Origin: Rhodospirillales bacterium | GTDB taxonomy: Bacteria; Pseudomonadota; Alphaproteobacteria; Rhodospirillales; SHVU01 | Direction of reading: 5' to 3' | Assembly: GCA_009691105.1 (NCBI GenBank) | Contig: SHVU01000006.1 | Location: 1,629 to 65,628 of the forward strand | DNA: 64,000 nt | Shown here: one piece after another, positions 16,185-53,021 of the stretch | How the letters are laid out: every line of letters begins with the position of its first letter | Numbering within the stretch: the first letter of the stretch is position 1 | Notes under the pieces: model-generated | Told to the model about the DNA's origin: nothing | Database searches by the model: none | Seen by the model: only the letters and a program-made list of their open reading frames with translations | Position numbers and translations under genes: made by a program

Positions 16185-16577
16185 GTTGAGCATCTGACGT
16201 TGTTCGACGCGTTCCTGATCGGCTGTACCAAGGTCATCGCCCTGATACCCGGCACCAGCCGTTCCAGCATCACCATGACGGCGGCGCGGTTCCTCGGCTT
16301 TTAACGCCGGGACGCGGCGCGGCTCTCTCTCTTGCTCTCCATCCCGGCGAGTCTCGGTGCCGGCACGCTCTCGGCCATCGATCTGTATCAGGCCGGGGAT
16401 TCGCTGCTGACGTTCGGAACGTTGGAGGCGGTCGGGCTCGCTTTCATCGCCGCGTTGCTGTCGATCCACGCTCTTCTCGCCTGGCTTGATCGCCAGACGT
16501 TCACGCCCTTCGTGATTTATCGCGTGATCTTAGGCGTGGCGTTGATCGCCATGGCCGCCGGCGATTTCTGGACCTAG
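16185..16577 (+). pseudogene. uppP: undecaprenyl-diphosphate phosphatase (UppP/BacA) remnant: 5'-truncated, with in-frame TAA at 16302..16304
   Basis: The frame of ORF 16332..16577 extended upstream reads [56 protein letters not shown]... The PGTSRSG-type motif and C-terminal half are present. The N-terminal ~140 codons are absent, because the osmC stop is only 40 nt upstream. Confidence 0.85.
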
Positions 16578-17506
16578 TAGCCAGCCGCCCGGTCGACGAC
16601 AGGATGGGGCCGCTCGCTGGCCTGGATGCGCCGAACGTTGACGGCGACGTGTTCGGCCGCCGAGCCGACATTGTTCCAGCTCGCGATATGCGGCGTCACC
16701 ACGACCTTGGGATGGCGCCAATAGGGATGATCGGCGGGCAAGGGCTCGGTCACGAAGACATCGAGCATGGCGCCAGCGATGTGGCCGGAATCGAGAGCGG
16801 CGATCAGGTCGGTGTCGACGATCTGCGGACCGCGACCGGCATTGATGACGAAGGCCCCGCGGCGAAGCTTCGCCAAAGCCCGGGCGTTGATCAGCCCGGT
16901 CGTCTCCGGCGTCAATGGCAGCAGGCCGACGAGGATATCGGTCTCGGCCAGCATGGCGTCGAGACTTTCCGGACCGGCGAAGGTCCGCACCCCGGGAATC
17001 GTCCGGGGCCGACGGCTCCAGCCGAGCGTCTTGAACCCTTGGTCGGCCAGGGCCCGAACCGCGTCGCCGCCCAGCTCGCCGAGGCCGAGGACTCCGACGG
17101 CCCGCGCCGCGGGAGTCGATTCGCGCAGGTCGCTCCATTTGGCTTGGCGTTGAGCCGCCTGAAAGACATGGAAATTCCGATGAAAGTGCAGAACGCCATA
17201 GAGGACGTAATGGGTCATGTTCCGGACCATGCCCTCGGCCGGCATCCGGACGATGGGGACATGCTTGGGAAGGGCCGGATTTTTCAGGACGTGATCGACA
17301 CCGGCCCCGAAGGTGAAAATCGCCTTCAAATTCGGGCAGGCCGCGTAGTCGAACTTGATCGAATTCTGGAGCAGCAGGTATTCGATGTCCTCCTGGCGAC
17401 CGATTCGGTCCGGCCAAACGCGGAACTCCATGCCGGGAAGGGCGAGCTTCAGCGCGTCGAGCCACTCGACCGGATTGAAGAGGGTCGTACCGAACAGGAA
17501 AGCCAT
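16574..17506 (-). CDS. D-isomer-specific 2-hydroxyacid dehydrogenase (glyoxylate/hydroxypyruvate reductase A-like)
   Basis: 310 aa. NAD-binding VGVLGLGELGGDAV, and catalytic RG..VD....H region (INAGRGPQIVD...TPHIAS). Confidence 0.85.
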   Translation of the reverse strand: MAFLFGTTLFNPVEWLDALKLALPGMEFRVWPDRIGRQEDIEYLLLQNSIKFDYAACPNLKAIFTFGAGVDHVLKNPALPKHVPIVRMPAEGMVRNMTHYVLYGVLHFHRNFHVFQAAQRQAKWSDLRESTPAARAVGVLGLGELGGDAVRALADQGFKTLGWSRRPRTIPGVRTFAGPESLDAMLAETDILVGLLPLTPETTGLINARALAKLRRGAFVINAGRGPQIVDTDLIAALDSGHIAGAMLDVFVTEPLPADHPYWRHPKVVVTPHIASWNNVGSAAEHVAVNVRRIQASERPHPVVDRAAGY

Positions 17507-17575
17507 GGGCGAGATCCTATGTCGGAGAAAACAGGAGTGTTAAAGTCTACCGAGTCGAGGACATAACGAAGGCCC

Positions 17576-18571
17576 ATGAACGACGTGAGCAAGAAAGCCG
17601 AGCCGGGGCGCCGTCGCGACTCCATCGCAGAAGAAGCCGCGGAAATCAAGGCAATGCGGGCCGAGACCCAGCCGACACGGCGGGCGACGGTGCCGGCCCT
17701 CGAGGCCGTTCTCTACGAGCCGATTCCGGTGCTCGACAGCGGCTTCGTCCGCGTCGTCGATTACCTCGGCGACGATACCGCCATCGTCCAGGCGGCCCGC
17801 GTTTCCTACGGCCGGGGCACGAAGAAGGTCAGCGACGACCGGGGCTTGATCCGCTACCTGATGCGGCATCGCCATACGACGCCATTCGAGATGTGCGAGC
17901 TCAAGCTGCACGTCAAATTGCCGATCTTCGTGGCGCGCCAGTGGATTCGCCATCGCACCGCCAACGTCAACGAATACTCGGCCCGCTATTCAGTGTTGGA
18001 TCGCGAGTTCTACGTTCCCGAACGGATGGCTGCGCAGTCCGAGACCAATCGCCAAGGCCGCGCCGGAGAACTCGATCCCACCGAAAGCGATGCGGCGCGG
18101 GCGCTCATCCAAGGCGACGGCGATCGGGCGTATGGAACGTATCTCGATCTCTTGAACGAAACCGAAGGCGGCGAGGTTCGCGATCCGAGCCGCAAAGGTG
18201 TGGCGCGCGAACTGGCCCGCATGGTTCTGCCGGCGAACGTCTATACGCAGTGGTATTGGAAGGTCGATCTTCACAACCTTCTGCATTTCCTAAGCCTGCG
18301 GGCCGATCCACACGCCCAGTATGAAATCCGCGTCTATGCCGAAGCGATCGGCGCGGTCGTCCAGAAGTGGGTGCCGATCACTTGGGAAGCCTTCGAGGAT
18401 TATTGGACGAAGGGGGCGCGGCTTTCGGCCCAAGCGCTGCGCTTGTTGAAGACCATGCTGGCGCCGGGCGTTCTCGCCGACGAGGCGAAGCTCGAAGCCT
18501 TGCGTAAAGAATCCGGGCTGAGCCAGCGCGAGTTCCTGGAATTTCTCGACACCCTGAAGCGGGGCGAATAG
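17576..18571 (+). CDS. thyX: FAD-dependent thymidylate synthase ThyX
   Basis: 331 aa. RHRHTTPFEM and the ThyX signature RHRTANVNEYSARY. Confidence 0.93.
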   Translation: MNDVSKKAEPGRRRDSIAEEAAEIKAMRAETQPTRRATVPALEAVLYEPIPVLDSGFVRVVDYLGDDTAIVQAARVSYGRGTKKVSDDRGLIRYLMRHRHTTPFEMCELKLHVKLPIFVARQWIRHRTANVNEYSARYSVLDREFYVPERMAAQSETNRQGRAGELDPTESDAARALIQGDGDRAYGTYLDLLNETEGGEVRDPSRKGVARELARMVLPANVYTQWYWKVDLHNLLHFLSLRADPHAQYEIRVYAEAIGAVVQKWVPITWEAFEDYWTKGARLSAQALRLLKTMLAPGVLADEAKLEALRKESGLSQREFLEFLDTLKRGE

Positions 18572-18576
18572 AGCGC

Positions 18577-20202
18577 CTACGTTCGAACAGCGCCGGTTTC
18601 GTCGGCCCGCATATCGAAGGCCGCCTCCATCAAGGCCCGCGTGTAGTCGGTCTTGGGTTTCGTAAAGAGTTCGTCCGCCGATCCGAACTCGACGATCTTG
18701 CCGTCGCGCATGACGATGACGTCGTGGGCCAAGGCCCGCACCACTTTCAAATCGTGGCTGATGAAGAGATAGGCGAGGTTGTGGCGGCGTTGCAGGTCGC
18801 GCAACAGATCAACGATCTGGGCTTGCACCGTCATGTCGAGAGCGCTGGTCGGCTCGTCCAGGACCATGAACTTCGGTTTCAAGATCAAGGCTCGAGCAAT
18901 GGCAATGCGCTGACGTTGACCGCCGGAGAATTCGTGGGGATAGCGATCTTGAGTCGCCGGATCGATCCCGACCTCGGCTAGCGTCTGGCCGATCAAGGCG
19001 CGGCGCTCGTCGGCGTTGCCGCCGATGTCATGGACGCGCAGACCTTCCTCGACGATGCGGCCCACCGACAGGCGCGGCGATAGACTGCCGATCGGATCTT
19101 GGAAGACGATCTGCATTTCGCGCCGCAACGGCCGGACCGCGCTGGCCGGTAAATCTTGAATGTTGCGACCGGCGAAGCGGATCGGGCCTTCGGACTTTTC
19201 GAGGCGCAGAAGACCGCGCCCGAGCGTGCTTTTGCCCGAGCCCGATTCACCGACCACACCGAGGGTTTGGCCTTCGCGCACAGCCAATGTGACGCCGTCG
19301 ACGGCTTTGACGTAGCCGACCGTGCGTTTGATGACGCCGCGACGGATCGGAAACCAGACTTTTAGATCGTCGGCCGCCATGATTTCGGCGGCGCTGGCGT
19401 TGCGCGCCTCGGGCCGGCCCTTGGGCTCGGAGGCCAGAAGCTTTTGCGTATAAGGATCGCGCGGCTTGGCGAAGATCTCGGCGGTCGCGCCCTGCTCGAC
19501 GATCCGTCCCTGGTACATGACGCAGGTCCGTTTCGACATGTGGCGGACGATGCCGAGATCGTGGGTGATGAGCAGCAGCGCCATGCCAAAGCGTTCTTGC
19601 AGCTCGCGCAGCAGCTTCAGGATTTGCGCCTGGATTGTGACGTCGAGCGCCGTCGTCGGTTCGTCGGCGATCAGAAGGTCTGGCTCGTTGGCGAGCGCCA
19701 TGGCGATCATGATGCGCTGCTGCTGGCCGCCCGAAAATTCGTGAGGGAACGCGTCCAGCCGCTCCACGGCCTGGGGCAACCCGACGAGATGCAAAAGCTC
19801 GATGACCCTAGCCCGGGCTTGGGTCGCATCCATGTGCTTGTGGACAAACAGGACCTCGGCGATCTGGCGGCCGATGGTGTGGAGCGGATTGAGGGAGGTC
19901 AGCGCCTCCTGAAAAATCATCGCGATACGATTGCCGCGCAGGGCCCGCATTCGATCCTCGGGCGCCGCCATCAGCTCTTCGCCTTGGAACCGGATCGATC
20001 CCGACGGATGCCAAGCGAGCGGATAGGGCAGGAGCTTCAGAACCGACAGCGCGCTGACCGATTTGCCCGAGCCCGATTCGCCGACCAGGCCGACGGTTTC
20101 GCCGCTATCGACGGTGAACGACACACCGCGCACGGCTTTGACCTCGTTCGGGCCGCGGCCGAACGACACCGCTAAATCTTTGATTTCGAGAAGGGGCGGC
20201 AT
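18577..20202 (-). CDS. yejF: peptide ABC transporter, fused double ATP-binding protein YejF
   Basis: Two Walker A sites (GESGSGKS twice), two LSGGQ signatures ([16 protein letters not shown]). ATG 20202 avoids overlap with yejE; the longest ORF starts at 20241. Confidence 0.9.
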
Positions 20203-20206
20203 CGGT

Positions 20207-21262
20207 CTACTTGAATGCTTTCCGCGGATCGAACGCGTCACGCACCGCTTCGCCCACGAAGACCAGAAGGCTCAACATGACCGCGAGGATCAGGAACGCG
20301 GTGATCCCGAGCCACGGCGCATGGAGGTTGGCCTTGCCTTGGTTGAGAAGCTCGCCGAGGGACGGCGAACCGGGCGGCAGGCCAAAGCCCAGGAAATCAA
20401 GCGCCGTCAGCGTTGTGATGGAACCGTTCAGGATAAAGGGCAGGAACGTCAGGGTCGCGACCATGGCGTTGGGCAGGACATGGCGGACCATGATGACGAT
20501 ATCGCTCACGCCCATGGCCTTCGCGGCGCGCACGTAATCGAAATTGCGGACCCGCAGAAACTCGGCGCGGACGACGCCGACCAGGGACATCCAACTGAAC
20601 AACAGCATCAGCCCGAGCAGCCACCAGAAGTTCGGCTCGACGATGGCGGCCAGGATGATGAGCAGATAGAGCGTCGGCATGCCCGACCAGATCTCCATGA
20701 AGCGCTGGAACAGAAGGTCCGTCAGGCCGCCGAAATAGCCCTGCACGGCGCCGGCCAGAACGCCGACGACCGAACTTACGATCGTCAGCGTCAGTCCGAA
20801 CAGCACCGAGATGCGGAAACCGTAGATCAGCCGCGCGACGACGTCGCGGCCCTGATCGTCGGTGCCGAGCCAATTGTCGGAGGACGGTGGCGCCGGAGCC
20901 GGGCTCGTCAGGTGATAGTTGATGGTCCCGTAGGAAAACCGGATCGGCGGCCACAGGATCCAGCCTTTGGCATCGATCAACTCGGCGACGGCCGGGTCGC
21001 GGTAGTAGGCTTCGGTCGGGAAGATGCCCCCGAACGTCGTTTCTGGATACTCGACGACGACAGGAACATAGAAATCTCCGTCGTAACGAACCAGCAGCGG
21101 TCGATCGTTGGCGATCAGCTCGGCGAAGAGCGACAGCACGAACAGCACGGAGAAAATCCACAGCGACCAGAAGCCGCGACGGTTGGCGCGAAAGCTGTCG
21201 AGCCGCCGTTGGGTGAGCGGCGAGATCGGGATGCCGAGGAAACGGGGTTGGGCGGCCGCCAT
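20207..21262 (-). CDS. yejE: peptide ABC transporter permease YejE
   Basis: 351 aa, multi-TM, DppC/OppC-like. Position within the yejABEF operon. Confidence 0.88.
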   Translation of the reverse strand: MAAAQPRFLGIPISPLTQRRLDSFRANRRGFWSLWIFSVLFVLSLFAELIANDRPLLVRYDGDFYVPVVVEYPETTFGGIFPTEAYYRDPAVAELIDAKGWILWPPIRFSYGTINYHLTSPAPAPPSSDNWLGTDDQGRDVVARLIYGFRISVLFGLTLTIVSSVVGVLAGAVQGYFGGLTDLLFQRFMEIWSGMPTLYLLIILAAIVEPNFWWLLGLMLLFSWMSLVGVVRAEFLRVRNFDYVRAAKAMGVSDIVIMVRHVLPNAMVATLTFLPFILNGSITTLTALDFLGFGLPPGSPSLGELLNQGKANLHAPWLGITAFLILAVMLSLLVFVGEAVRDAFDPRKAFK

Positions 21263-22377
21263 TAATTTCGCGCCTCGAAATCGATGCGCGGATCGATGAC
21301 GTGATACATGAGGTCGCCGACGAGATTCATCAGCAGGCCGAGCAGCGTGAAGAAATAGAGCGTCCCGAACATCACCGGGTAATCGCGGTTGATCGCCGAC
21401 TCGAAGCCCAGTAAGCCGAGCCCGTCGAGGGAGAAGATCACCTCGACCAAGAGAGCCCCGGTGAACAGGATGCCGATGAAGGCGCTCGGGAAACCCGCCA
21501 CGGGAATCAGCATGGCGTTTCGGAAGATGTGGCTATAGAGGATGCGCTGCTCGGCCAACCCCTTGGCCCGCGCCGTGACGACGTATTGTTTGCCGATCTC
21601 TTCGAGGAACGAATTCTTGGTCAGCATGGTCAGGCCGGCGAAGCCGCCGATCACCATGGCCAGGACCGGCAAGGTGATGTGCCATAGGTAGTCGACGATT
21701 CGCTCCTGCCACGACATCTCGGGCCAGTTCGCCGAGGTCAGGCCGCGCAACGGGAACCAGTCGAAGACGCTTCCGCCGGCAAACAACACGACCAGCAAGA
21801 TCGCGAACAGGAAGCCAGGAATCGAATAGCCGACGATGATGGCGGCCGAGCTCGCGACGTCGAAGCGGCTGCCGTGCCGTACCGCCTTGGCGATGCCGAG
21901 CGGGATCGAAATCGCGTAGATGATGAGCGCGGTCCATAGACCCAACGAGATCGAGACCGGCATCTTGTCGAGAACGAGGTCGATGACGCTGCGATCGCGG
22001 AAAAAGCTCTGGCCGAAGTCGAAGACCAGATAGCTCCGCATCATCTGGATGAACCGCTCGTGGGCGGGCTTGTCGAAGCCGAACTGGCGCTCGATTTCCT
22101 TGATGAGACTGGGGTCTAGACCGCGTGCCCCGCGATACGTGCTGGACGAGGAATCCGAAGATCGGCTGCCTTGGGTTTGCTGCCCGCTGCTTTGGGTTTC
22201 GCCGCGGGCGCCACCGGAAAACCGCGCCGTTGCGTCGACGGCGGTGCCGCGGATCTCCGCAATCATCCGTTCCACCGGACCGCCAGGCGCGGCCTGCACG
22301 ACTACGAAATTGATGACCATGATCCCGAACAAGGTCGGGATGATGAACAGCAAGCGGCGGACGATATAAGCCAACAT
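21262..22377 (-). CDS. yejB: peptide ABC transporter permease YejB
   Basis: 371 aa. [19 protein letters not shown] start typical of the DppB/OppB family, with the YejB-type Ser/Gln-rich insert. 1-nt TAATG overlap with yejE. Confidence 0.88.
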
Positions 22378-22440
22378 GAGCGGTCTAGCGTCCTCGTCCG
22401 ATGACGTCGTCCGTCCGTCGATGCGACTCGGTCACGAAAT

Positions 22441-24282
22441 CTAGCGCTTCGCCTTCTTCGCTTCTAGTTCGGCGTTCTTGGCGGGATCGACCCACCAACA
22501 CTGCAGGCAGAAGCCATATTTGGGGGTGGTCGACGGCTTTCCGAGCTTGTCCCAGTAGGCGACCCGGAAACTGCGGCTGTGCCAGTTTGGAATCACGTAG
22601 TGCCCCCACAACAGGACGCGGTCCAGGGCGCGGGTCCGGGCAATGAGATCGTCCCGGTCGGTGGCCGCGATCACGAGATCGACCAGAGCATCGACGACCG
22701 GATCGGCGATGCCGATGGTATTGCGGCTGCCTTTGGTCTGAGCGGCCGCTGAGCCACAGAAATCGCGCTGCTCGTTTCCCGGCGACAACGACTGGCCGAA
22801 CACCTCGACCGTCATGTCGAAGTCGAAGTCGTCGACCCGGGCCTGGTACTGCGCGGCGTCGACGGTGCGGACGCGGGCCTTGATGCCGAGGCGTTCGAGG
22901 TTCGCGACGAAGGGCAGGGCGATCCGTTCGAAGGCTGGCGAGTTCAGAAGGATTTCGAACTCGAAGGGCTGGCCGGATTTGTCGTTGATGAGTTGGCCGC
23001 CTTTGACTGCCCATCCCGCCTGGCGCAGAAGCTCGAAAGCTTGGCGAAGCTCGTCGCGGATGTTGCCTTCGGCATCGCCTTTGGGCGGCAGATATTCCTT
23101 CGTGAAGACTTCGTCGGGAATCTTGCCGCGGAAAGGTTCCAGGATTTTGAGCTCAGCCGGGCTCGGCAGGCCCCGCGACGCAAGCTCGGAGTTCGAGAAG
23201 TAGCTCCGCGTCTGCGTGTACTGGCCGTAGAACAGATTCTTGTTCGACCATTCGAAGTTGAAGGCAAACGCCAGGGCGGCGCGGACCCGGCGGTCGGTGA
23301 ACAGCGGCCGGCGGATGTTGTAGGCGAAGCCCTGCAAGCCGGTTGGGATCTCGTGCCGGATCTCCTCCATCTTGTAGAGACCATGGCGCAATGCCGGACT
23401 GTCGTAGCCGGTGGCCCAATCCTTGGCGGCATTTTCGGCACGGAAGTCGTATTCGCCGGACTTGAAGGCTTCCAGCGCCACGGTGCCATCGCGGTAGTAG
23501 TCGTAGCGCATGAGATCGAAGTTATCGGATCCGACATTCACCGGCAGCTTCGCGCCCCAATAGTCTTTGACCCGTTCGAAGGTGATGGTGCGGCCGGCTT
23601 CGAACGATTTCACCCGATAGGGGCCGCTGCCGATGGGTGGATCGAGGGTAGCGCGCTCGAAGTCGCGGCCCTCCCAGTAATGCTTGGGCAGGATCGGCAG
23701 CTCGCCGATGATCAACGGCAGCTCGCGGTTCTCGCCGCCGGAGAAGTGGAACTTCACACCGCGCTCGCCAACCTTTTCGGCGCGATCGACGTTGGCGTAA
23801 TAACCGCGATAGAGCGGCCGACCTTTGGTTTTGAGGATCTCGAGGGAGAAGATCACGTCTTCCGGCGTCACCGGTTTGACGTCGTGCCAGCGCGCCTCGC
23901 GCCGCAGCGTGAAGGTGATCCATGAGCGGTCGTCCGGCCATTCCATCGACTCGGCCAGGAGCCCGTACCGTGAGAAGGCTTCGTCTTGCGAGCCCGTGGT
24001 CAGGGTTTCGAACAGGCCGCTGATGCCGGCGGCGGCAACGCCGCGGAGGACGAAAGGATTGAAGGTGTCGAAGGTGCCGATAGCGTTCAGGCGAATTTCG
24101 CCGCCGCGCGGGGCCTTGGGGTCGGCGTAGTCGAAATGCGTAAAGCCGGGGCCGTACTTTGGCTCGCCGTGCATGGCGATGGCGTGGCTGACGTGAGTTT
24201 TCGGTTCTGCCGCCGCGGCCAATCCCGACGCAATCGTTGCGCCCAAGACCAGACCGAGGAGCCGTCGGGTCATGCCGGTCAT
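22441..24282 (-). CDS. yejA: extracellular solute-binding protein YejA (family 5 peptide SBP)
   Basis: 613 aa. Signal peptide MTRRLLGLVLGATIASGLAAAA, with size and sequence typical of YejA. Confidence 0.88.
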   Translation of the reverse strand: MTGMTRRLLGLVLGATIASGLAAAAEPKTHVSHAIAMHGEPKYGPGFTHFDYADPKAPRGGEIRLNAIGTFDTFNPFVLRGVAAAGISGLFETLTTGSQDEAFSRYGLLAESMEWPDDRSWITFTLRREARWHDVKPVTPEDVIFSLEILKTKGRPLYRGYYANVDRAEKVGERGVKFHFSGGENRELPLIIGELPILPKHYWEGRDFERATLDPPIGSGPYRVKSFEAGRTITFERVKDYWGAKLPVNVGSDNFDLMRYDYYRDGTVALEAFKSGEYDFRAENAAKDWATGYDSPALRHGLYKMEEIRHEIPTGLQGFAYNIRRPLFTDRRVRAALAFAFNFEWSNKNLFYGQYTQTRSYFSNSELASRGLPSPAELKILEPFRGKIPDEVFTKEYLPPKGDAEGNIRDELRQAFELLRQAGWAVKGGQLINDKSGQPFEFEILLNSPAFERIALPFVANLERLGIKARVRTVDAAQYQARVDDFDFDMTVEVFGQSLSPGNEQRDFCGSAAAQTKGSRNTIGIADPVVDALVDLVIAATDRDDLIARTRALDRVLLWGHYVIPNWHSRSFRVAYWDKLGKPSTTPKYGFCLQCWWVDPAKNAELEAKKAKR

Positions 24283-24371
24283 CTCATTCGTCTCCCTGCG
24301 ACCGCCGTCGTGGGGTCATTCTTAGCGGAAATCCGACCCAAAGTCGCGGCCCGGTCATGTCGCGACCGAGG

Positions 24372-25058: not shown

Positions 25059-25087
25059 GGGTGGGCGCGGGCCGCTAGGCGATCCTA

Positions 25088-29817: not shown

Positions 29818-29918
29818 CGGGAGACTGGCGATGGACGGACCACTCGCCAACCCGGTCAGGTCCGGAAGGAAGCAGCCGTAACGAGTTTCGGTCCGGGTCG
29901 TCGACTAGTCTCCCACCG
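29818..29918 (+). ncRNA. ffs: signal recognition particle RNA (small bacterial 4.5S type)
   Basis: Contains the invariant domain IV core GGUCAGGUCCGGAAGGAAGCAGCC. The terminal helix is formed by GGGAGACU (29819..29826) and AGUCUCCC (29907..29914). Canonical position immediately upstream of dnaX. Ends are approximate. Confidence 0.9.
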
Positions 29919-33091: not shown

Positions 33092-33679
33092 ATGTCCCCG
33101 CTCGAACAGCTCATTCAACTTCTCGCCAAGCTCCCAGGCCTTGGGCCGCGCTCGGCGCGCCGTGCCGCGCTGCATTTGATCAAGCGGCGGGAAGCCCTGC
33201 TTCTGCCGTTGATTGACGCGGCGGCCGAAGCGGCGCGCGCCGTCAAAGCCTGTGCGACCTGCGGCAATCTGGATTCGCAAGATCCCTGCGCCATCTGCGC
33301 CGATCCCCGGCGTGATCCCACGGCGCTCTGCGTGGTTGAGGATGTTGCCGATCTCTGGGCGCTGGAACGGACCGGATCGTTCCGCGGCCGCTATCACGTT
33401 CTGGGCGGAACGCTCTCGGCCCTCGATGGAGTCGGTCCCGACGAATTGCGGATTCCGGCGCTCGTGACCCGGGCCCGTCCGCCGGAGATCACCGAAGTCA
33501 TTCTCGCGACCGGAGCGACGGTCGATGGCCAGACGACGGCGCACTACATCGCCGAGCGTCTCGCCGCATCTGGCATCGCCGTGACGCGGATCGCTCACGG
33601 CGTGCCCTTGGGTGGTGAACTCGACTATCTCGATGACGGAACGCTGATCGCCGCTCTCAAAGCACGCCGGCCGCTCTAG
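33092..33679 (+). CDS. recR: recombination protein RecR
   Basis: 195 aa. [11 protein letters not shown] helix-hairpin-helix, zinc finger C.TCGN....PC.IC, and a Toprim region. Confidence 0.95.
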
Positions 33680-34335
33680 GCGAACAACACGAGATCGATT
33701 GCGTAGTGGGCGCCGATCGCGGGCAGCAGCGAGCGGGTTCGCCGCACCACGATCATCAGAAGAAGTCCCGCGATGAAGGCATCGGCGATGCTGGCGACGC
33801 CGTGCGACCAGTGAATGAGCCCGAACGCGAAAGAGCTTGCGATCAGTATCAGTCCCGGCCGCCACCCCAGCGCCAGGAGAAGGCAGGGGAGCAGAGCGCG
33901 ATAGAGAATTTCTTAGGTAAACGCCGTGAGGCCGAGGCCGAAGCTGAGATCGACGGCGCGGAGCCAGCCCGATTCGATGACCGGATAGAAGAACATTTCG
34001 GTTCGCGGAAAGGCATACGCGATCCATGGCTTCAGCAGCGTGGTGGACGCGAGCGCCAGCAGGACGACGCCAACCATCCACGCTGTAGCTTTCCACCAGG
34101 ATATAGGTGGTTTCATCGCCTGTGAAACCGCGTCGCGTAAGTCGGGATGCCAGAGAACAATAGCGAGCGGCAGGATCTTGCTCGCGTAATCGACTGTCAG
34201 CCATTCGGCGACCGTGTCGACCCGCATGAAAGCGAGGTCGTTCAGAAATCCCGGAGCCAGCGCCAGCAGCAGAAAGCCAGTCGCCGATCGCGACCATTGA
34301 AAGTGTGAGTCCGGTGTCGACGGGGTCAGGTTCAT
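33676..34335 (-). pseudogene. CPBP family intramembrane glutamic endopeptidase (CAAX protease-like) with in-frame TAA at 33913..33915
   Basis: ORF 33913..34335 ends ...GLGLTAFT*. The same frame continues EILYRALLP...FAFGLIHWSHG...[13 protein letters not shown] to 33676. The stop replaces the first Glu of the catalytic EExxxR motif. The FxxxH and HxxxD motifs are intact downstream. Confidence 0.85.
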
Positions 34336-34366
34336 GACGTCTCCCGCGATGGTCGACGGCGCTTCT

Positions 34367-37072: not shown

Positions 37073-38365
37073 ATGGATCTCTACGAGCTGATGTCTCGTT
37101 TTGGCGCGGCTCTCGGCGTCGGGCTGGTGTTCGGTCTCGAACGCAGCTGGCAAAACCGCGACGCCGGCCCCGGCACGCGCACCGCCGGTATCCGCACGTT
37201 CACGATCTCGGGCTTGCTGGGCGGCGTTGTCGGCGCCTTGGCCATGGTCAGTGGCGGCCCGATGACTCTCGGTGGCGGACTGATCGTTGGTTTAGGGTTC
37301 GCCGCTTTTGTCGGCACCATGGCTCTCTTTTTCCAGGAGGAGAACCGCGCCGACGAAACGTACTCGGCGACGTCGTTCGTCACCGCGATGCTGACCTTCG
37401 CGCTCGGCGCGTACGCACTGATCGGCGATATCCGAGTCGCGGGGGCGGTCGCGGTTGTCAGCGCCGGCCTTCTCGCGGCCCGGGAAAATCTTCACAGCTG
37501 GATCAAACACCTGACGTGGCCGAAGCTGCGCTCGGCCTTGGTTCTCTTGGCGATGAGCGTTGTCGTCTTGCCGCTTGTCCCAAACGAGGACATCGGACCG
37601 TTCGGCGGGGTCAATCCACGCGAGATCTGGATCATCGCTATCGTCCTCGCCGCCATTTAGTTCTTCGGCTACATCGCGGCGAAATTCTTCGGCGACCGAT
37701 GGGGTCTTCTGGTGGCCGGCGCGGCCGGGGGGCTCGCCTCGTCGACGGCGGTGACTATCGCCAATGCCCGCCAAGCCGTTACGCAAAAGGGTCCGACCTA
37801 TCTTCTGTCGGCCGGGGTAGCTCTGGCGACAGAGGTCAAGTTTCTGCGGATCGGTGGCATCGTTGTTGTCATTAAGCCTGAGCTTCTCATCTTGGTGGCG
37901 GCGGCATTGTTAGCGGCGACCCTGGCTGCGGTTGGTTACGACCTCGTCGCCGCTTTTTGGCTCGGCGCGGGAAGTCGTGCGTCGCAACGGATCAAATTCC
38001 GCAATCCGTTCGATCTTCCGGCGGTCCTCGGCTTTGCCGTGTTGCTCGCCGTCGTCATCGTGATCGGCCGAGTCGTGGGCGAGAGCTTCGGCGGAACAAC
38101 CGCCATTCTCGGCGCTGCGGTCATGGGGGTTGTCGACATCGACGCGACAACCATCGCGACGGCGCGATTGGTGCCGAAGCCGCTGGATGCCTTGACGGCA
38201 AGCTTCGCGATTCTGCTAGCGGTCACGACCGACACGGTGACTAAGATCGCGATCGGTGCGGTTCTCGGTCATGGGCGTTTCGCCGCTGAGATTTAGCTGA
38301 TGGCGCTCGGCTGTTTCATTGCCGGCGGCGCCGCGCTCTGGGCCACCGTGCTCGTGGCGGCTTAG
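37073..38365 (+). pseudogene. MgtC/SapB-family plus DUF4010 membrane protein, interrupted by in-frame TAG at 37658..37660 and probably a second TAG at 38294..38296
   Basis: ORFs 37073..37660 and 37712..38296 share a frame. Reading across gives ...IAIVLAAI*FFGYIAAKFFGDRWGLLVAGAAGGLASSTAVT..., continuous with the DUF4010 consensus (GGLvSSTAvT). After the second TAG the frame continues with a TM-like [22 protein letters not shown]. Total is about 430 codons, the usual family length as I recall it. Confidence 0.8.
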
Positions 38366-45391: not shown

Positions 45392-46191
45392 TCCTGGACA
45401 CCCTCCGCCGGCAAGGTCGTTGCCCACGCCTCGTATGGATCTTCGGCGTGATGGTTGTCGTGGCGCTCGGCGTCGGACTTCTGCCGAAGATCCCGCAAGA
45501 TTCGGCCTATCACGCCTTTGCCGACACCAGTGTCTGGCAAGGCATCCCGCGAGCCGGCGATGTCGTGTCGAGTCTGGCGTTCGTGATGGTTGGGCTTCTA
45601 GGTATTCGCTTTGTCGCTAGCCTTCCGCCGATCAAGCCCGAAGAGGGATTGGCCTTTGCCATCGCAACGTTCACCTTTTTCTTCGGTCTCGCTCTGGTCG
45701 GGATCGCGTCGGCCTACTATCACCAAAACCCGTCGACCGAGCGCCTGTTCTGGGATCGCGCCGCGATGGGTATTCCGACTATGGCGTTGGTGTCGATCAT
45801 CATGATTGAACGGGTCGGTCGGCGTGCCGGAATCGTGATTCTTCCCGTGTTGCTTGCGCTGTCGGTGGCCGGCGCGTTGCATTGGGAATTCAGTGAGGCA
45901 GCGGAAGCGAGCGATCTACGTGTCTACGCGTTCACGCAGGGCGCGCCGGTGTTGGCGGCGCTCTTGATCGTGATGCTCTTTCCCGGACGCCATCGCGACA
46001 CGAATTTTTTCGCGATAACGATCGGATGTTACGGGGCGAGCCGCTTGTTCGAGATTTTCGACCACGAGGTCTTCGCGGCTCTTAGCCAAACGATCAGCGG
46101 TCATAGCCTAAAACACCTGACATTGGCGGTGGCCGCCTATACGGTGCTCCGCATGCTGCGCGAGCACCGCGCCCAGGAAGAGGCGCGATGA
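45388..46191 (+). CDS. ceramidase-like (alkaline ceramidase/PF05875-like) integral membrane protein
   Basis: 267 aa, 7 TM. AYHAFAD, ASAYYH, FWDR and a C-terminal GHSLKHL His motif, as in the bacterial ceramidase-domain family. Assigned from memory of the family pattern. Confidence 0.65.
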   Translation: MILDTLRRQGRCPRLVWIFGVMVVVALGVGLLPKIPQDSAYHAFADTSVWQGIPRAGDVVSSLAFVMVGLLGIRFVASLPPIKPEEGLAFAIATFTFFFGLALVGIASAYYHQNPSTERLFWDRAAMGIPTMALVSIIMIERVGRRAGIVILPVLLALSVAGALHWEFSEAAEASDLRVYAFTQGAPVLAALLIVMLFPGRHRDTNFFAITIGCYGASRLFEIFDHEVFAALSQTISGHSLKHLTLAVAAYTVLRMLREHRAQEEAR

Positions 46192-47486
46192 TTCAACCGG
46201 CAGCCCCCCGTCCCAATCAGTTTGCGTTGCTGGCGTCGCGACGGTTCCTACCGTTGTTCGTGACGCAGTTCTTCGGCGCCTTCAACGACAATGTCCTCAA
46301 GAACGCCTTGGTCGTTCTCGTGACGTATCGGTTGGCCGATGCCGCCGGAATTGACGCCGCGATGCTCGTCAATCTGGCGGGCGGCATTTTCATTCTGCCG
46401 TTCTTCTTGTTTTCGGCGACCGCGGGGCAGCTAGCCGACCGTCTCGAAAAATCCATTCTCATCCGTATCGTCAAGATTTCGGAGATCGGCATTGTCGCCG
46501 TTGCCGTTGCCGGTTTCGTCTCCGAGAGCCTGCCGCTGTTGCTCGTCGCGCTCTTTCTCATGGGAACGCATTCGACGTTCTTCGGCCCGTTGAAGTACGC
46601 GATCCTCCCGGATCATCTGGATCGCTCTGCGCTCATCGGAGCCACGGCTTTGATCGATGCCGGAACCTTCCTGGCGATTCTGTTCGGAACGATCTTGGGC
46701 GGCGTGTTGATTTTGGCTCAGGGCGGCGTCGCCTTGACGTCGACCGCGATGCTCGTCGTTGCCGGTCTTGGTCTTGCGACGTGTCTGTTCATTCCCAAAG
46801 CCGGACCAGCGGCACCAGACTTGCAGATCTCTCGGAACTTCGTTGCCGAGACGGGTCGGCTGGTGCGGTCGATGGCGATCAATCTCGGGGTCCGGCGAGC
46901 CATCTGGGGGATTTCGTGGTTTTGGACGGTCGGCGCGGTGTTGCTCGCTCAATTTACGCCGCTAGCCAAAAGCGTCCTCGGCGCCGACGAAACCGTGGTG
47001 GCGTTGTTTCTGACGACGTTCTCGATCGGAATCGGCGCCGGCTCGCTCACCGTCAATCGCCTGCTCAAGGGCGAGATCACGGATCGCTATGGGCCGATCG
47101 CCGCTGTGGGGATGGCGATTTTTGCGTTCGATCTGTATTTCGCGAGCAGCGCCGCGGCCCGTCCAGCGGGTGCCGCCTTCATCGGCTATGAAGCCTTCCT
47201 GGCTCAGCCGATGGGCTGGCGCATCGTGATCGACATGCTCGGAATTTCGACGGCTGGCGGGTTCTTCGCCGTGCCGCTCTACACCGTCCTCCAGACCGCC
47301 GCTGCGAAAGGGTTTCGCGCCCGGGCCGTCGCCGTCAACAATATCGTGAACGCGATGGCCATGGTGGTGTCGGCCCTGGCTTTGGCGGCGGCCTTTGGCC
47401 TCGGATGGATCGGCATCGTCGACGTCTTTCTTCTCGTCGCGCTGGGCAACATTGCGGTGGCGCTCTTTCTATATTGGCGGCGGTGA
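46188..47486 (+). CDS. MFS transporter, LplT (lysophospholipid transporter)-like
   Basis: 432 aa, 12 TM. N-terminal FLPLFVTQFFGAFNDNVLKNAL resembles the LplT/Aas-associated MFS signature. ATGA overlap upstream and TGATG overlap downstream. Confidence 0.75.
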   Translation: MIQPAAPRPNQFALLASRRFLPLFVTQFFGAFNDNVLKNALVVLVTYRLADAAGIDAAMLVNLAGGIFILPFFLFSATAGQLADRLEKSILIRIVKISEIGIVAVAVAGFVSESLPLLLVALFLMGTHSTFFGPLKYAILPDHLDRSALIGATALIDAGTFLAILFGTILGGVLILAQGGVALTSTAMLVVAGLGLATCLFIPKAGPAAPDLQISRNFVAETGRLVRSMAINLGVRRAIWGISWFWTVGAVLLAQFTPLAKSVLGADETVVALFLTTFSIGIGAGSLTVNRLLKGEITDRYGPIAAVGMAIFAFDLYFASSAAARPAGAAFIGYEAFLAQPMGWRIVIDMLGISTAGGFFAVPLYTVLQTAAAKGFRARAVAVNNIVNAMAMVVSALALAAAFGLGWIGIVDVFLLVALGNIAVALFLYWRR

Positions 47487-48474
47487 TGCCGGGCGGACGG
47501 CGCGCCGCTCTCGTCGCCGTTCTCTGTGTCATCGGTCTTGTCGTGTGCGCCGCGCCGGTGCGGTACGTCGCCTCGCCGAGCTTTGCGCCCGACGGTTCTG
47601 GGCTTGCCCTCAATCTTTGCGACAGCGACTAGGGATGCAAGATCGCGACCTTCGATCTGGCGTCGGCGCGGCTTCGCGAGTTCAAGCCGCCGTCGCGTAC
47701 CAGCTGGTTCGCGCCGGTCTATTCATCGGACGGAGCGCGACTTGCGTTTTCTGTCGCCACTGAAAATCGACCCTACGCCCAGCTCGCGATCATGAACGTC
47801 GATGGCAGCGGCTATCGCGTTCTGACCGAAGGCAATATCTGGCGCGGCTGGCCGTCGTTCTCGCCCGACGGTCGACGCCTAATCTATGCGCGTTCGACCA
47901 GTTTCTCGCGCCAGCGGCCGTATGGTCCTATCAACAGCCGTATTTATGAGATCGACATCGCCACGGGCGTCGAACGGCCGCTGACTCGTCCCGCCTTTTC
48001 CCGTCCGTCGCGTCCGTTCTATCTGCCGGACGGTCGACGTTTCATCTTCTCGTCGCCGCCGGCGTTCGATGCCACCGGCGACAACCGCCAGTTCAAGCAG
48101 CTCTACGGCGACAACACGATCTTCGTGATGGACGAAGCGAATAACCGCTTGGTGCCGGCCTTCACGCAAGGATCAGAATCGGCACGGCCGGCGATCTCGC
48201 GAGACGGTGCGCGGATTGTTTTCTTGGCCCCGACCAACGCCATCGACGGCGTCCACGGCTTCCTCAACTTCGATGTGTTCGTGCGCGAAGCCGACGCCAA
48301 CCGCCACATCACGCGGCTCAGCACGTTCATTTCGTATGTGGCGATGGCCCCCGACGGGACGCAGATCGTGATCATCGACGACAGGAAGCGGAACGGCGTC
48401 GACGTCTCTGGGTGATGAAGATCGACGGCTCGGATCTTCGCGAAATACGAATCCCCGACTGGACCCAGCCCTAG
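47486..48474 (+). pseudogene. periplasmic PD40/TolB-like beta-propeller repeat protein with in-frame TAG (47630..47632) and a 3' frameshift near 48400
   Basis: Signal-anchor MPGGRRAALVAVLCVIGLV...SPSFAPDGSGLALNLCDSD*GCKIATFDL...YSSDGARLAFS...MNVDGSGYRVLTEG... is all one frame across the TAG. ORF 47792..48415 ends in ...RNGVDVSG*, but a different frame (offset by two bases) reads LWVMKIDGSDLREIRIPDWTQP*, a canonical PD40 repeat. Confidence 0.8.
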
Positions 48475-48490
48475 GCGGGCGGGCCGTCGG

Positions 48491-50821
48491 CTAACGCGAG
48501 ACGGTCGGGGGCGGAACGAAGGACCCGACCGACGGCAGTGGTCCGCGAAACGGTTCGACTTGAACTAGCGTCGTCAGGGCGATGGGCCCTTGCCCGACTT
48601 TTGACGTGCCCTTGTCGGGCGTCAGAACGTTGGCGTTGCCGTGTTTGTCGAGCGTTCCCGGCTTGCCGCCTTCGGCCGGGTCGTACCAGGCCCCGGTCGC
48701 AAGCTGCACGACGCCGGAATCGACGCGGTCCGTCACGACGGCACCGGCAAGGCAAGCGCCGCGATCGTTGAAGACGCGGACGACCGAACCATCGGCGATG
48801 CCGCGGCTGGCGGCGTCGGCAGGATTCATCAGGATCGGTTCGCGGTCCTGCACTTTCGAGGCGCGGCTGACGCGGGCTTGATCCAACTGCGAATGCAAAC
48901 GGCCCGAGGGCTGGCTCGAAATCATGTGCAGCGGAAAACGCTTGGCCTGGGCCGAGCCGAGTCGTTCGCAGGGCTCAAGCCAGGCCGGGTGACCGAGGCA
49001 ATCGTCGTAGCCGAAGCTGGCAAGGCGTTCCGAGAAGATCTCGATCTTGCCCGACGGTGTCGTCAGGGCATGCGCCTCGGGATCGCGGCGGAAATCGGAA
49101 TAGATGACGACGTCGTCCTTGGGCGCCGGAAACTCGACATGCCCCTTGGCCCAGAATTCGTCGAAGGTCGGCATGACGAAGCCGGCCGCTTCGAGTTCCG
49201 GGAACTGAACGTTGGCGCGGCACCCTTCATAGATGTGCCGGATCCAGCCCATCTCGTCGCGGTCTTCGGTGAAGGCGCTGCGGAAGCCGAGGCGAGCGGC
49301 GAGATCGGCGAAGATATCGAAATCGTTACGAGCCTTGCCGACCGGATCGATGACTTTGTGCATCGCCGTGATGAAGCGATCCCGCGACGACGCGCCCAAG
49401 TCGTTGCGTTCTAGCGTCGTCGTCGACGGCAGGACGATGTCAGCGTGACGCGCCGTCGCCGTCCACCATGGCTCGTGCACGATGACGGTGTCGGGGCGCT
49501 GCCAAGCGCGCACCAACCGATTCAAATCCTGATGGTGGTGGAACGGATTGCCGCCCGCCCAGTAGACGAGCTTGATGTCGGGATAGGTGAGCTTGCTGCC
49601 GTTGAACTCGAGCGTCTCGCCGGGATGCAGCATCATATCGGAGATGCGGGCGACCGGAATCGCCAAGCCGACCGGATTGCGACCCTGCGGCATGTCGGGA
49701 ACGCGGACCGGAAGTCGGGCGTTGCCGATGCCGTGGATCGAACCGTAGCCGAACCCGAAGCCGCCGCCGGGCAAGCCGATCTGGCCCAACATCGCGGCCA
49801 GCGCGATGACGGCCCAATAAACCTGTTCGCCGTGATCGCCACGTTGCAGCGACCAGGTTGCGGTCACCATCGTCCGTTGGCCGGCCATGCGTCGGGCGAG
49901 GCCGACGATGGTCGCGGCCGGAACCGCGGTGATCTCTTCGGCCCAGGCGGCATCCTTGGGCGTGCCGTCGGTTTCGCCGCGGACGTAGCCGAGGAATTGA
50001 TCGAAGCCGGTGCAGTAGCGTTCCATGAAGCCGCGATCGGCCAAGCCCTCGCTGTCGAGGGTGTGGCACAGCGCCAGCAATAAGGCGGTGTCGGTGCTCG
50101 GGCGGATCGAGATGCGCTCGGCCTTGAGGACGGCCGGCGCGTCATCGGAGACCGGGCTGACGACGACGAATTTGACTCCGGCGTCGGCGGCGTGGCCGAG
50201 CCAGTACTGATAATTGTTGATCGCGAAACCGCCGGAGGATACCTGGCCGTTCTTCAGCGCGGCGCCGCCGAACATCACCATCAGCTTGGTGGCTTTCGCG
50301 ATGGACCGCCAATCGGTGACGCGGCCGTTGGTCGCATCAAAACTGCCGAGGATATGCGGCAAAAAGACCATCGCCGCACCCCAGCTGTAATTCGTCGTCT
50401 GGTCGGTGCAGCCGCCGTAACCGAACAGGAAGCGCCGCACGAGAGAGCGGGCATGATGGAAGCGTCCGGCGCTGGCCCATCCATAAGACCCGCCGAAAAT
50501 GGACGCATTGCCGTGCTTCGTCTTGACGCGTTTGAGTTCGGTCGCCACCAGATCGAGCGCTTCGTCCCACGACACCGGAACAAACGCTTCGCCACCGCGA
50601 CCTTCGCGGTTGGCGCCAGGACCTTTGCGCAGATAGCTCTGCCGAACCATCGGCTGATCGATGCGGCTCGGCGCGTAGGCGATGTCTTGCGTCGCCTCGA
50701 CCATCGGCAGAAGCCGCGTTTCGCGTTCGAATGGCTGGACGCCGACGAACCGCCCATCCTTCACTTCGGCGCGGAAGGCGCCCCAATGACTGGCGTGGCG
50801 GACGATCGTCGGGTTGGCCAT
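48491..50821 (-). CDS. molybdopterin guanine dinucleotide oxidoreductase, biotin/methionine sulfoxide reductase (BisC/TorZ-like), cytoplasmic
   Basis: 776 aa. SHWGAF...V.DGR..GV.PF start typical of BisC. No Tat signal. DMSO-reductase family length and motifs. Confidence 0.88.
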   Translation of the reverse strand: MANPTIVRHASHWGAFRAEVKDGRFVGVQPFERETRLLPMVEATQDIAYAPSRIDQPMVRQSYLRKGPGANREGRGGEAFVPVSWDEALDLVATELKRVKTKHGNASIFGGSYGWASAGRFHHARSLVRRFLFGYGGCTDQTTNYSWGAAMVFLPHILGSFDATNGRVTDWRSIAKATKLMVMFGGAALKNGQVSSGGFAINNYQYWLGHAADAGVKFVVVSPVSDDAPAVLKAERISIRPSTDTALLLALCHTLDSEGLADRGFMERYCTGFDQFLGYVRGETDGTPKDAAWAEEITAVPAATIVGLARRMAGQRTMVTATWSLQRGDHGEQVYWAVIALAAMLGQIGLPGGGFGFGYGSIHGIGNARLPVRVPDMPQGRNPVGLAIPVARISDMMLHPGETLEFNGSKLTYPDIKLVYWAGGNPFHHHQDLNRLVRAWQRPDTVIVHEPWWTATARHADIVLPSTTTLERNDLGASSRDRFITAMHKVIDPVGKARNDFDIFADLAARLGFRSAFTEDRDEMGWIRHIYEGCRANVQFPELEAAGFVMPTFDEFWAKGHVEFPAPKDDVVIYSDFRRDPEAHALTTPSGKIEIFSERLASFGYDDCLGHPAWLEPCERLGSAQAKRFPLHMISSQPSGRLHSQLDQARVSRASKVQDREPILMNPADAASRGIADGSVVRVFNDRGACLAGAVVTDRVDSGVVQLATGAWYDPAEGGKPGTLDKHGNANVLTPDKGTSKVGQGPIALTTLVQVEPFRGPLPSVGSFVPPPTVSR

Positions 50822-50824
50822 GGT

Positions 50825-51556
50825 TTAAAACCGATATCCGTAGCGGCCGCCGAAGGTTTCGAGGCCTTCATTCTTATCACAAAGCTTGCCGTTCGAGATG
50901 TGATCGAAGTGGAAACTGACGGCATGCTGACCGCCGAACCGGTATCCGAGCTCGATCCCTTCGCGGAACAGGACGCTGCAGCCCAATTGCTTGGCGTCGA
51001 GGCGCTCCTCGGTGGGTTCACTGTCGTGGACGGCGCTGCCGAACGAGAACTCGGCGAAGAAGTTTCCTAGGAATTCATAACCCCAGGTCAGGCCGAAGTA
51101 GCCCTGGCTGGTGTTGCCGTCGGAGTTGATCGTGCCGCCGAGATGCGGGCGGGGCGACCAGATGACGTCGAGGAAAGACGGCGAGGCGAACAGGACCTCG
51201 AAATTGGTGTCGAAGCCGCTTTCCTTGTTGCGGCTGAACGGGCCTTCGTCGTGGACGAGAAGGCCAGAGCGCAACTCGGAGAGAACGCCATACAACGGCT
51301 GCGGCTGGAACTCGGGCTGCACCGGAGCCGGGGCACGCTGGGCGACAACCATCGGTTGCGCGGCCGGGGCACGGGGTGACGGAGCCGGAGCCGCGGCCGG
51401 CGGCTGGGGCTGGGCTTGCGCTTTGGTAAACGGATGCGGCTGACGCGCGAACTGGCGCATGTCGTAGGTACTGCCGGCGGCGTGGCCGGCCACTGACCAG
51501 ATGCTGCCGACGATCGCCACCGTTGCGGCAATCGCGATACCGAATTTGCTAGCCAT
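50825..51556 (-). CDS. acyloxyacyl hydrolase / lipid A 3-O-deacylase (PagL-like) outer-membrane protein with Pro/Ala/Gln-rich linker
   Basis: 243 aa. Signal peptide, a low-complexity PA-rich stretch of about 55 aa, then a beta-barrel with the HISNG catalytic motif and a terminal aromatic YGYRF. Confidence 0.75.
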   Translation of the reverse strand: MASKFGIAIAATVAIVGSIWSVAGHAAGSTYDMRQFARQPHPFTKAQAQPQPPAAAPAPSPRAPAAQPMVVAQRAPAPVQPEFQPQPLYGVLSELRSGLLVHDEGPFSRNKESGFDTNFEVLFASPSFLDVIWSPRPHLGGTINSDGNTSQGYFGLTWGYEFLGNFFAEFSFGSAVHDSEPTEERLDAKQLGCSVLFREGIELGYRFGGQHAVSFHFDHISNGKLCDKNEGLETFGGRYGYRF

Positions 51557-51663
51557 GATCCACTCGTAACCGCGCTCAAATCCCCCACGGTGCGCTATTT
51601 ACTTCCGCCCGGCGGCCGTTGTCCAGGTATGCTGGAGCCCTCTTTTAATGACTGGAACGCGGC

Positions 51664-52380
51664 GTGAAGGAAGTCGAACGCGCATTTGCCGACGGCGAGA
51701 TCATCTTTCGCGAGGGCGAGCCGAGCCGGGCTGCCTATCTCCTGTCGCGAGGCCGGGTCGAACTCGTCAAGCTGGCCGAAAAGACAGCGACCAGGATATC
51801 GCTCCTCCGGCCCGGCGACATGTTCGGCGAGCTTGGCCTTCTTGACGAAAGCCCGCGTGCCGCGACCGCCCGGGCGGTCGGACCAGTTCTCGTCAAAGAA
51901 ATCCCACGCCAGGAGTTACTCCAGTCCTCGGTCGCCGATACGCCGCAGCCGTCGATCACCCTGCCGTCGCTCGGCGGGTTGATGGACCGGTTGCGCGGCG
52001 CCGTTATGCCGGCCGATGAAACGCCGGCTTCGTCAGCCCCGCCGGAACCAAAACGGACGCCGCTCAGCATCATCGATCGACTTCTCGGCGCCGGATTCAC
52101 GTCACGCTCGAAGCCGACGCTCGTCATGATCGCGCCCCTGGCCGACGACGCGGGTGGTATCGCGACGCGGGCGCTGGCCAGCATCCTCAACCGTCGCCAT
52201 GGGCTGCGCCGGCATGGCGCGGTTCCGCGACCGTTTGGAAGACGCGATCGGCGTTCCGGTCGTCGAGCCGACGTTGGCGGCGACGACCATGGCGCTGGGT
52301 GCCGTCCGCCTCGGCTGGTAATCGCTGTCAATCTCCAGTCGGCGGTATGCCGACATGTTTTTGTCTTGAAACCCCGATGA
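51664..52380 (+). pseudogene. cyclic nucleotide-binding domain protein fragment; the 3' part is not credible coding sequence and overlaps a racemase gene remnant
   Basis: Residues 1-110 form a clean cNMP-binding domain (GEIIFREGEP...FGELGLLDESPRAATARA). Homology-like sequence continues to ...LVMIAPLADDAGGIATRALASILN (about 52190). After that the translation becomes Arg/Gly-rich nonsense. Confidence 0.65.
52199..52321 (+). pseudogene. C-terminal remnant of an Asp/Glu/hydantoin racemase family gene
   Basis: An alternative frame reads MGCAGMARFRDRLEDAIGVPVVEPTLAATTMALGAVRLGW*, matching the conserved C-terminus (LGCAGM....gvPViD....A...a..L) of this family. No upstream body is present. Confidence 0.6.
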
Positions 52381-52472
52381 CGCCCGTGTGAACTGCGTGA
52401 GCTCGCGTGTCTTGGCGTGAGGCTAAAATTTTCGCGAATCCCATTCCGGACTCTCTGTTTAAGGGGGAAACA

Positions 52473-53021
52473 ATGAACCGCATCGCTCATCATTGCCGTC
52501 GCCTTTTGGTCGCTGCCGCCATCGCCATGATGCCGATGGTCGGCAACGCGGCCGACGATTTGCTGTCCGAAGTCAAAGCCTGCGGCACGATCCGCGTCGC
52601 GCTGCAAGCCAAGTTCGAGCCCGCCATGTTCCGCGACTCGACCGGCAAGATCGTCGGCTTCAATCCCGACGTCGCCGAGTAAATCGCCCGTCGTCTTGGA
52701 GTGAAGGTCGAATACGTCGCGCCGGATTTCGCGGTCGTGGTCGCCGGTCACTGGCAAGGGCGTTGGGACATGAACGTCCAGACGCTCACGGTGACGCAAC
52801 AGCGCGCCGAGGTCCTGATCTTCACCGATCCCTACACCAAGTCGCCGACGGTCGCCGCGGTCCACCAAGCCAACACGTCGGTCAAAGACGTGAAGAAGGA
52901 TTTGGACGGCAAGAAGATCGGCGTCTGCGGCGGCTGTTCGCAGAGCAAACGAATGACGTCCTGGGGCGCGGCGTTGCCGGTGCCACCCGCCACCAGCCAG
53001 TCGCTGACGGTTCGGATTTGA
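52473..53021 (+). pseudogene. family 3 (amino-acid) ABC substrate-binding protein with in-frame TAA (52680..52682) and loss of the 3' third
   Basis: GGGGA-type RBS, signal peptide MNRIAHHCRRLLVAAAIAMMPMVGNA. GTIRVAL...DSTGKIVGFNPDVAE*IARRLGVKVEYVAPDF...WDMNVQTLTVTQQRAEVLIFTDPY is continuous across the stop. Homology fades after GKKIGV (about 52930). Confidence 0.8.

Follow-up and report, generated by a model that had tools for sequence, protein, structure and literature searches.

Pseudogenes that arise under weak selection, through nonsense mutations and deletions, are a known phenomenon in bacteria, and in one described case their formation has been tied to a particular class of mutation: during in-host evolution of Bordetella hinzii, an excess of G:C to T:A changes was accompanied by stop-codon pseudogenes (PMC8302680). 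In-frame stop codons may also be decoded as amino acids, as in some phages that reassign amber to Gln, or be suppressed by supD-type tRNA-Ser(CUA). Here, we analyze a 64,000-nucleotide stretch (the window) of an uncultured Rhodospirillales bacterium (assembly GCA_009691105.1, contig SHVU01000006.1, positions 1,629 to 65,628), and all results for the window refer to these 64 kb of one metagenome-assembled genome (MAG). Five accessory genes in the window, encoding UppP (BacA), a CPBP (Rce1-like) intramembrane protease, an MgtC/DUF4010 membrane protein, a TolB-like PD40 beta-propeller protein and a family-3 solute-binding protein (SBP), are interrupted by six in-frame TAA or TAG codons. We consider it likely that these are genuine, recent pseudogenes in a free-living lineage that carries a moderate excess of G:C to T:A changes.

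The window resembles other instances of bacterial gene decay in several respects: its in-frame stops lie at sense codons of orthologues, homology continues downstream of them, genes carry multiple lesions including deletions, only accessory genes are lost, and related lineages have undergone losses in parallel. It differs from classic reductive evolution in that this Lake Baikal lineage is free-living, that no insertion sequence is found in the window's lesions, and that its branch shows no general acceleration; it differs from bacterial gene decay more broadly in that the window has six point nonsense mutations for one small frameshift. With MutM/MutY deficiency or oxidative mutagenesis, as in B. 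hinzii, it shares a branch-specific G:C to T:A excess together with stop-codon pseudogenes, yet the B. hinzii case concerns a dominant mutational class, whereas here G:C to T:A makes up about 15% of substitutions in a natural free-living population and over a much longer time scale. The consistent residue behind each stop codon recalls stop reassignment or suppression, but in the window TAG and TAA are normal terminators, most of the interrupted genes carry other lesions, and the stop sites are ordinary sense codons in close relatives.

Translation across each interruption places the six stops at TAA 16302, TAA 33913-33915 (minus strand), TAG 37658, TAG 38294, TAG 47630 and TAA 52680, all in frame and all where a first-pass annotation, made from the sequence alone, had put them. 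Family-typical sequence is found on both sides of all six stops. The Pfam families BacA/UppP, Rce1-like CPBP, MgtC plus DUF4010, PD40 and SBP_bac_3 are matched across the stops, and intact relatives align through them in a single frame, with 93.6% identity over 437 residues for MgtC/DUF4010 (protein P0009), 79% over 217 residues for CPBP (P0021) and 70% over 306 residues for PD40 (P0023); homologues of the SBP likewise align through its stop in one frame. The expectation that conserved motifs continue past the stops is thus borne out by both profile matches and alignments. The sparing of housekeeping genes is equally clear in the window, where full-length domain matches are found for pckA, osmC, thyX, an Opp-type transporter, kdsB, pheA, nudC, dnaX, ybaB, recR, rmuC, def, fmt, truA, dapE, dapD and others, and where the signal recognition particle (SRP) RNA gene is likewise found among the surrounding genes. 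A window-wide scan for stops flanked by same-frame coding signal revealed no further interrupted genes and no in-frame TGA, and its extra matches are natural gene junctions. About 6-7 of roughly 62 genes are disrupted, a figure for the window only.

Relatives carry sense codons at five of the six stop sites, the PD40 site being ambiguous. The five inferable ancestral codons are TCG (Ser) at both MgtC/DUF4010 sites, GAA (Glu) in uppP, and Glu codons in CPBP and the SBP, and all five corresponding stop events are G:C to T:A transversions. Two of these codons, Glu in the EE motif and TCG in an IS.xGY motif, had been guessed in the first-pass annotation, and both imply the same G:C to T:A change.

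Logan assemblies of runs SRR8561390 and SRR8561391, metagenomes sampled from the Lake Baikal water column at depths of 1250 m and 1350 m, contain the same truncated products in two separate libraries, with contigs 99.9% identical to the window, the CPBP TAA included. The ENA assembly ERZ1305449 carries the truncated products too, and its proteins differ by single residues, indicating co-occurring strains. As independently assembled ENA and Logan data yield the same truncated products, the stops are not assembly errors: they are real alleles of a free-living population, present in two libraries, and the organism is uncultured, free-living bathypelagic plankton. In the NCBI annotation of the 74,295-bp contig (locus tags EXQ90_02165 onward, proteins MSO53929.1 and so on), the halves of the split open reading frames (ORFs) are listed as separate hypothetical proteins.

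A scan of genome contigs with Fmt showed that its identity to the nearest species-representative genomes is about 62-64%, and such relatives (Fmt identity at or below 64%), lacking synteny at the accessory genes, were of no use for ancestral codons. Closer relatives were found through 90% protein clusters and homologue searches. Sister lineage D (ENA ERZ27265269; contigs L081 and L082, protein P0009) shares 90-94% nucleotide identity with the window, lineage E (GCA_021733385.1; contig L085, protein P0021) 80%, and lineage F (ERZ27280310; contig L086, protein P0023) 78%.

The MgtC+DUF4010 gene (37073-38365, plus strand) carries two of the stops, TAG 37658-37660 and TAG 38294-38296, both derived from TCG. 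Its counterpart in sister lineage D encodes an intact 438-residue protein with TCG at both positions, and in the DNA alignment to L081 the sequence ATT TCG has become ATT TAG at each site. Fragments of the gene are also present in the Logan and ENA assemblies. The sister gene contains 11 TCG codons and only two ATT-TCG pairs, and both pairs are ATT-TAG in the window (37655-37660 and 38291-38296), a striking coincidence that the polarised mutational spectrum described below does not explain.

The CPBP gene (33676-34335, minus strand) is otherwise full length and has no lesion beyond its TAA at 33913-33915, which stands in place of the initial Glu of the EExxxR motif. Logan contigs from two runs (L083 and L084) and two ENA contigs have this TAA as well. 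In lineage E the gene is intact (217 residues), with GAG at the stop position; a closer ancestor for the site was not found, the one further contig, L091, belonging to a distant lineage and ending before it. In sister lineage D, rmuC directly adjoins recR (L088 2129-2131, against window 33685-34365) and the CPBP gene is cleanly absent. Since the gene is deleted in D and intact in the outgroup E, lineage D has independently lost a gene that is stopped in the window.

The uppP remnant (16183-16577, plus strand) comprises the C-terminal half of the gene, matching positions 137-256 of the 257-position Pfam BacA profile and nothing before them, with TAA at 16302-16304. Sister contig L082 has GAA at the stop site, and its homology to the window ends at 16183; the N-terminal half of the sister gene has no match anywhere in the window. 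In that sister gene (L082, about 250-1070) both halves are present, with a frame switch between ...TLVFGIL and YIADKRG...; the switch is either a true frameshift, which would make this copy a pseudogene too, or faulty sequence in a contig of low coverage. Judging from these alignments, CPBP and uppP appear to be undergoing independent loss in sister lineage D, by mechanisms different from those in the window.

In the PD40 gene (47486-48474, plus strand), TAG 47630-47632 is joined by a 1-bp deletion near 48403, the single 3' frameshift noted at first pass. Translated searches (tblastn) switch frame at 48403/48406, and beyond the deletion the conserved C-terminus can still be followed in the original frame as far as the ancestral stop, TAG 48472-48474. 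Lineage F encodes an intact 329-residue protein with Ala at the stop position; because this column lies in a variable loop, the ancestral codon is ambiguous, and no closer ancestor was found for the site, contig L090 ending 36 nucleotides short of it.

The SBP remnant (52473-53021, plus strand) has TAA at 52680-52682, a column at which 7 of 9 homologues have Glu. These homologues (294-314 residues) align only to about window position 52985, and some 110-130 C-terminal residues have been lost. The split is identical in a strain variant from ENA (P0015/P0012). Immediately upstream lies the remnant of a cyclic nucleotide monophosphate (cNMP)-binding gene (51664-52380, plus strand). Only some 180 N-terminal residues out of ~575 match its intact orthologues, which have 577 residues in lineage F (L086) and 575 residues in sister lineage D (L089), and the deletion breakpoint lies near 52205-52209. 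In relatives an EamA gene follows the cNMP-binding gene and in the window the SBP remnant takes its place (junction 52205-52473), which implies that two unrelated remnants were brought together by a deletion or a rearrangement. Four of the five interrupted genes thus have lesions beyond a first stop: the 5' half of uppP is lost, MgtC/DUF4010 has its second TAG, PD40 its 1-bp deletion, and the SBP has lost its 3' third. Together with the cNMP-binding gene, which lacks its 3' two-thirds, uppP and the SBP account for the at least three truncated remnants that had been anticipated.

Several observations bear on how recently these genes were inactivated. The ratio of nonsynonymous to synonymous substitution rates (dN/dS) ranges over 0.07-0.18 across the interrupted genes, with 0.073 between the two MgtC stops, compared with 0.02-0.25 for neighbors that are intact, in a test that has little power at these divergences. 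As the interrupted genes do not differ from their intact neighbors in dN/dS, inactivation would take up no more than a short and recent portion of the branch. Nor is the branch accelerated in general, with 110 changes other than C>A (the notation used from here on for G:C to T:A, strand ignored) on the window branch against 102 on the sister branches. The first-pass annotation had read the interruptions as ongoing decay of accessory genes, and the multiple lesions, the sense codons in relatives, the low dN/dS and the losses in the sister lineage all agree with that reading; its suggestion of host restriction is unlikely for an organism from the water column of Lake Baikal.

Three data sets point to a C>A excess in this lineage. 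Given the codon usage, C>A changes are expected to make up 24-41% of new nonsense mutations, and the five of five observed depart from this at p ~0.001-0.01; neither the lack of TGA among the stops nor the ratio of TAA to TAG is significant. In a three-taxon polarised comparison over 3.6 kb that contains none of the stop sites, the 130 changes on the window branch comprise 20 C>A, 20 C>G, 69 C>T, 1 T>A, 18 T>C and 2 T>G, and the 104 on the sister branches comprise 2 C>A, 27 C>G, 60 C>T, 13 T>C and 2 T>G. The C>A fraction thus differs strongly between window and sister branches (20/130 vs 2/104, Fisher p=0.0004), and A:T to C:G changes, of the MutT type, are not raised on the window branch. A third comparison needs no polarity: across 9.5 kb of close-sister alignments, stop sites excluded, C>A and T>G differences stand at 79:36 (p=7.5e-5), with the same direction in all six alignments, and transitions at 250:235. 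Intact genes alone give 50:24, and third codon positions 47:18. In this codon usage C>A is also one of the two most stop-prone classes, since a stop is created by 5.2% of C>A events, 3.0% of C>T events and 5.6% of the much rarer T>A events. The comparison with a sister genome that the first-pass annotation had recommended therefore supports one part of its speculation about unrepaired 8-oxoguanine (8-oxoG), namely a C>A excess on the window branch, and limits the other, in that C>A is not dominant there but amounts to about 15% of changes.

We also considered narrower or broader descriptions of this spectrum. Class-independent drift toward A:T as the sole process was suggested by a first pooled spectrum that was dominated by the 78% relative, and was revised once closer sisters and polarisation were brought in. 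A C>A process specific to TpC or TCG contexts, prompted by the MgtC ATT-TCG stops and a 17:2 asymmetry, was dropped because polarised C>A changes on the window branch are not TpC-enriched and because the context at nonsense sites is forced by the structure of stop codons. In their CpG context, the G>T events are indistinguishable from the high CpG background. In unpolarised comparison, the GC content of the window lies 1-4 points below that of every relative. Against L085 and L086 (33.5-34.8 kb and 44.2-52.2 kb) the window is 1.6-4 GC points lower; in the same alignments, which are unpolarised, AT-ward changes in TCG context stand at 52:17 for C>T and 10:0 for C>A, a pattern absent from the polarised subset.

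These data suggest a model in which five dispensable envelope, transport and accessory genes were inactivated by point mutations that made TAA or TAG out of Glu (GAR) or Ser (TCG) codons, and in which small and large deletions are eroding the same genes and the neighboring cNMP-binding gene. The lineage has gained C>A changes several-fold faster than its sisters since their split, and may have done so in a G>T-prone regime in which oxidized guanine was poorly repaired or overproduced. Such a regime, acting on weakly selected genes, would be expected to yield TAA and TAG only, from Glu and Ser codons, and purifying selection would spare essential genes. We infer that the proteins of the interrupted genes are non-functional and that the C>A excess stems from 8-oxoG handling, of which a mutY/mutM defect or oxidative stress may be the cause.

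A number of findings weigh against this model, or at least against its mutational part. The dN/dS values give no positive sign of relaxed constraint, and the polarised comparison covers 3.6 kb only, with outgroups near saturation at synonymous sites. C>T is the largest class on the window branch (69/130), and a C>A share of only about 15% is not the spectrum of a standing mutY/mutM-null lineage. The window-branch spectrum predicts that C>A should supply ~31-40% of nonsense mutations, so that five of five (p ~0.003-0.01) is only partly explained, and at average branch rates C>T nonsense mutations should outnumber C>A ones by about two to one. Six single-residue strain variants imply mostly transitions, and when the window is set against distant relatives, transitions and C>A show the same degree of AT-ward asymmetry. 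The uniformly C>A stops would be better accounted for by a brief episode rich in C>A, or by selection for loss, than by average branch rates.

The first of these ideas is a more specific form of the model. In this version, a recent, time-limited C>A mutator episode, with MutY/MutM lost or impaired or under intense oxidative stress in cold, oxygen-rich deep water, would have produced a wave of Glu-to-stop and Ser-to-stop pseudogenes that were subsequently fixed. It would explain why the stops belong to one class despite a branch spectrum that predicts mostly C>T nonsense, and it would represent natural mutator-driven genome streamlining caught in the act; we regard it as a tentative possibility. 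Somewhat more doubtful is the opposite view, that the pseudogenes are of the ordinary kind and arose under no particular mutational regime, and that both the all-C>A stops and the branch asymmetry reflect chance and the nonsense-proneness of the class. C>A would indeed give 24-41% of nonsense mutations in any case, the sample is small and partly post hoc (five sites, and 20 versus 2 events in 3.6 kb), and comparison with distant relatives shows no class-specificity in the AT-ward drift, yet three independent data sets agree (5/5 stops, 20 vs 2, and 79:36 with symmetric transitions). Selection for loss, in which inactivation was favored in the deep-lake niche, is compatible with our preferred explanation but is in itself unlikely. 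Independent loss of CPBP and uppP in the sister lineage by different mechanisms would suit it, as would stops fixed in samples from two depths and a nonsense count above the average branch-rate prediction for genes that were constrained until recently. Relaxed selection, however, predicts parallel loss equally well, the five genes have no functional link to each other, and the data do not separate selection from drift.

The two remaining alternatives would deny that the genes are pseudogenes at all. If the stops were read through or suppressed, with TAG as Ser and TAA as Glu, by suppressor tRNAs or programmed read-through, the genes would still be functional, as the first-pass annotation had also allowed. 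The consistent mapping of TAG to Ser (twice) and TAA to Glu (three times) fits this idea, as do dN/dS values downstream of the stops that are as low as in intact genes and the lack of lesions besides stops in MgtC and CPBP. The mapping, however, follows from single G:C to T:A steps. TAG and TAA end about two-thirds of window genes (43/66 calls) at family-typical C-termini, with full-length Pfam matches running up to these gene ends; as they are normal terminators here and in relatives, with TAG the clade's most frequent stop, efficient suppression would be very costly. Moreover, three of the five genes are dead anyway (uppP without its 5' half, PD40 frameshifted, the SBP without its 3' third), the stops share no 3' context, no tRNA gene lies within the 64-kb window, and sister lineages have sense codons or have deleted the gene. 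We consider read-through highly improbable. Most improbable of all is a sequencing, assembly or binning artefact, such as oxidative G>T library damage in a low-coverage consensus. G>T is the classic oxidative library artefact, and the MAG and Logan sequences differ at four sites (window 33571, 33648, 34195 and 34940) whose derived alleles, G>T, A>T, G>T and C>A, are all transversions, three of them G:C to T:A. Yet each allele at these sites is found in at least two assemblies, so the differences are real polymorphisms; 8 of 10 Logan-covered C>A differences between window and sister are confirmed in Logan, and the NCBI MAG, the ENA assembly (slightly divergent strain variants included) and the Logan assemblies of two libraries agree on the truncated products.

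Beyond the interrupted genes, the window has several further features. TAG is its commonest stop codon, ending 25 of 51 long coding ORFs (49%), with 25 TAG, 23 TGA and 18 TAA among all calls in a genome of 64% GC. The preference for TAG is common to relatives (6 of 9 genes in L086); pooled high-GC alphaproteobacterial loci have 57% TGA, 28% TAG and 15% TAA. A KefC/KefB-like potassium efflux gene (11305-12981, plus strand) aligns to E. coli KefC at residues 4-130 and then from about 152-160 onward, which bears out an in-frame deletion reported at first pass as 30 codons and here placed at ~25 residues of the membrane domain. A 776-residue protein encoded at 48491-50821 (minus strand) has molybdopterin oxidoreductase domains, and its NCBI name, 'Asp-tRNA(Asn)/Glu-tRNA(Gln) amidotransferase GatCAB subunit C' (MSO53964.1), is likely a misannotation. 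A small bacterial SRP RNA gene at 29819-29917 (plus strand), upstream of dnaX, accounts for most of the non-coding gap at 29.1-30.0 kb, which we had considered as a possible gene remnant and now attribute to the RNA gene; an opposite-strand ORF called at this site in an ENA contig is probably spurious.

The split ORFs in this public MAG are thus best read as fresh pseudogenes, rather than as errors or recoding. They provide a small, internally consistent case linking a G:C to T:A bias to the mode of gene loss in a free-living freshwater bacterium. If the bias extends genome-wide, this lineage and its sisters, in which the same genes disappear by other routes, would form a useful natural system for telling apart gene loss driven by mutation and gene loss driven by selection in bacteria that are neither symbionts nor pathogens.

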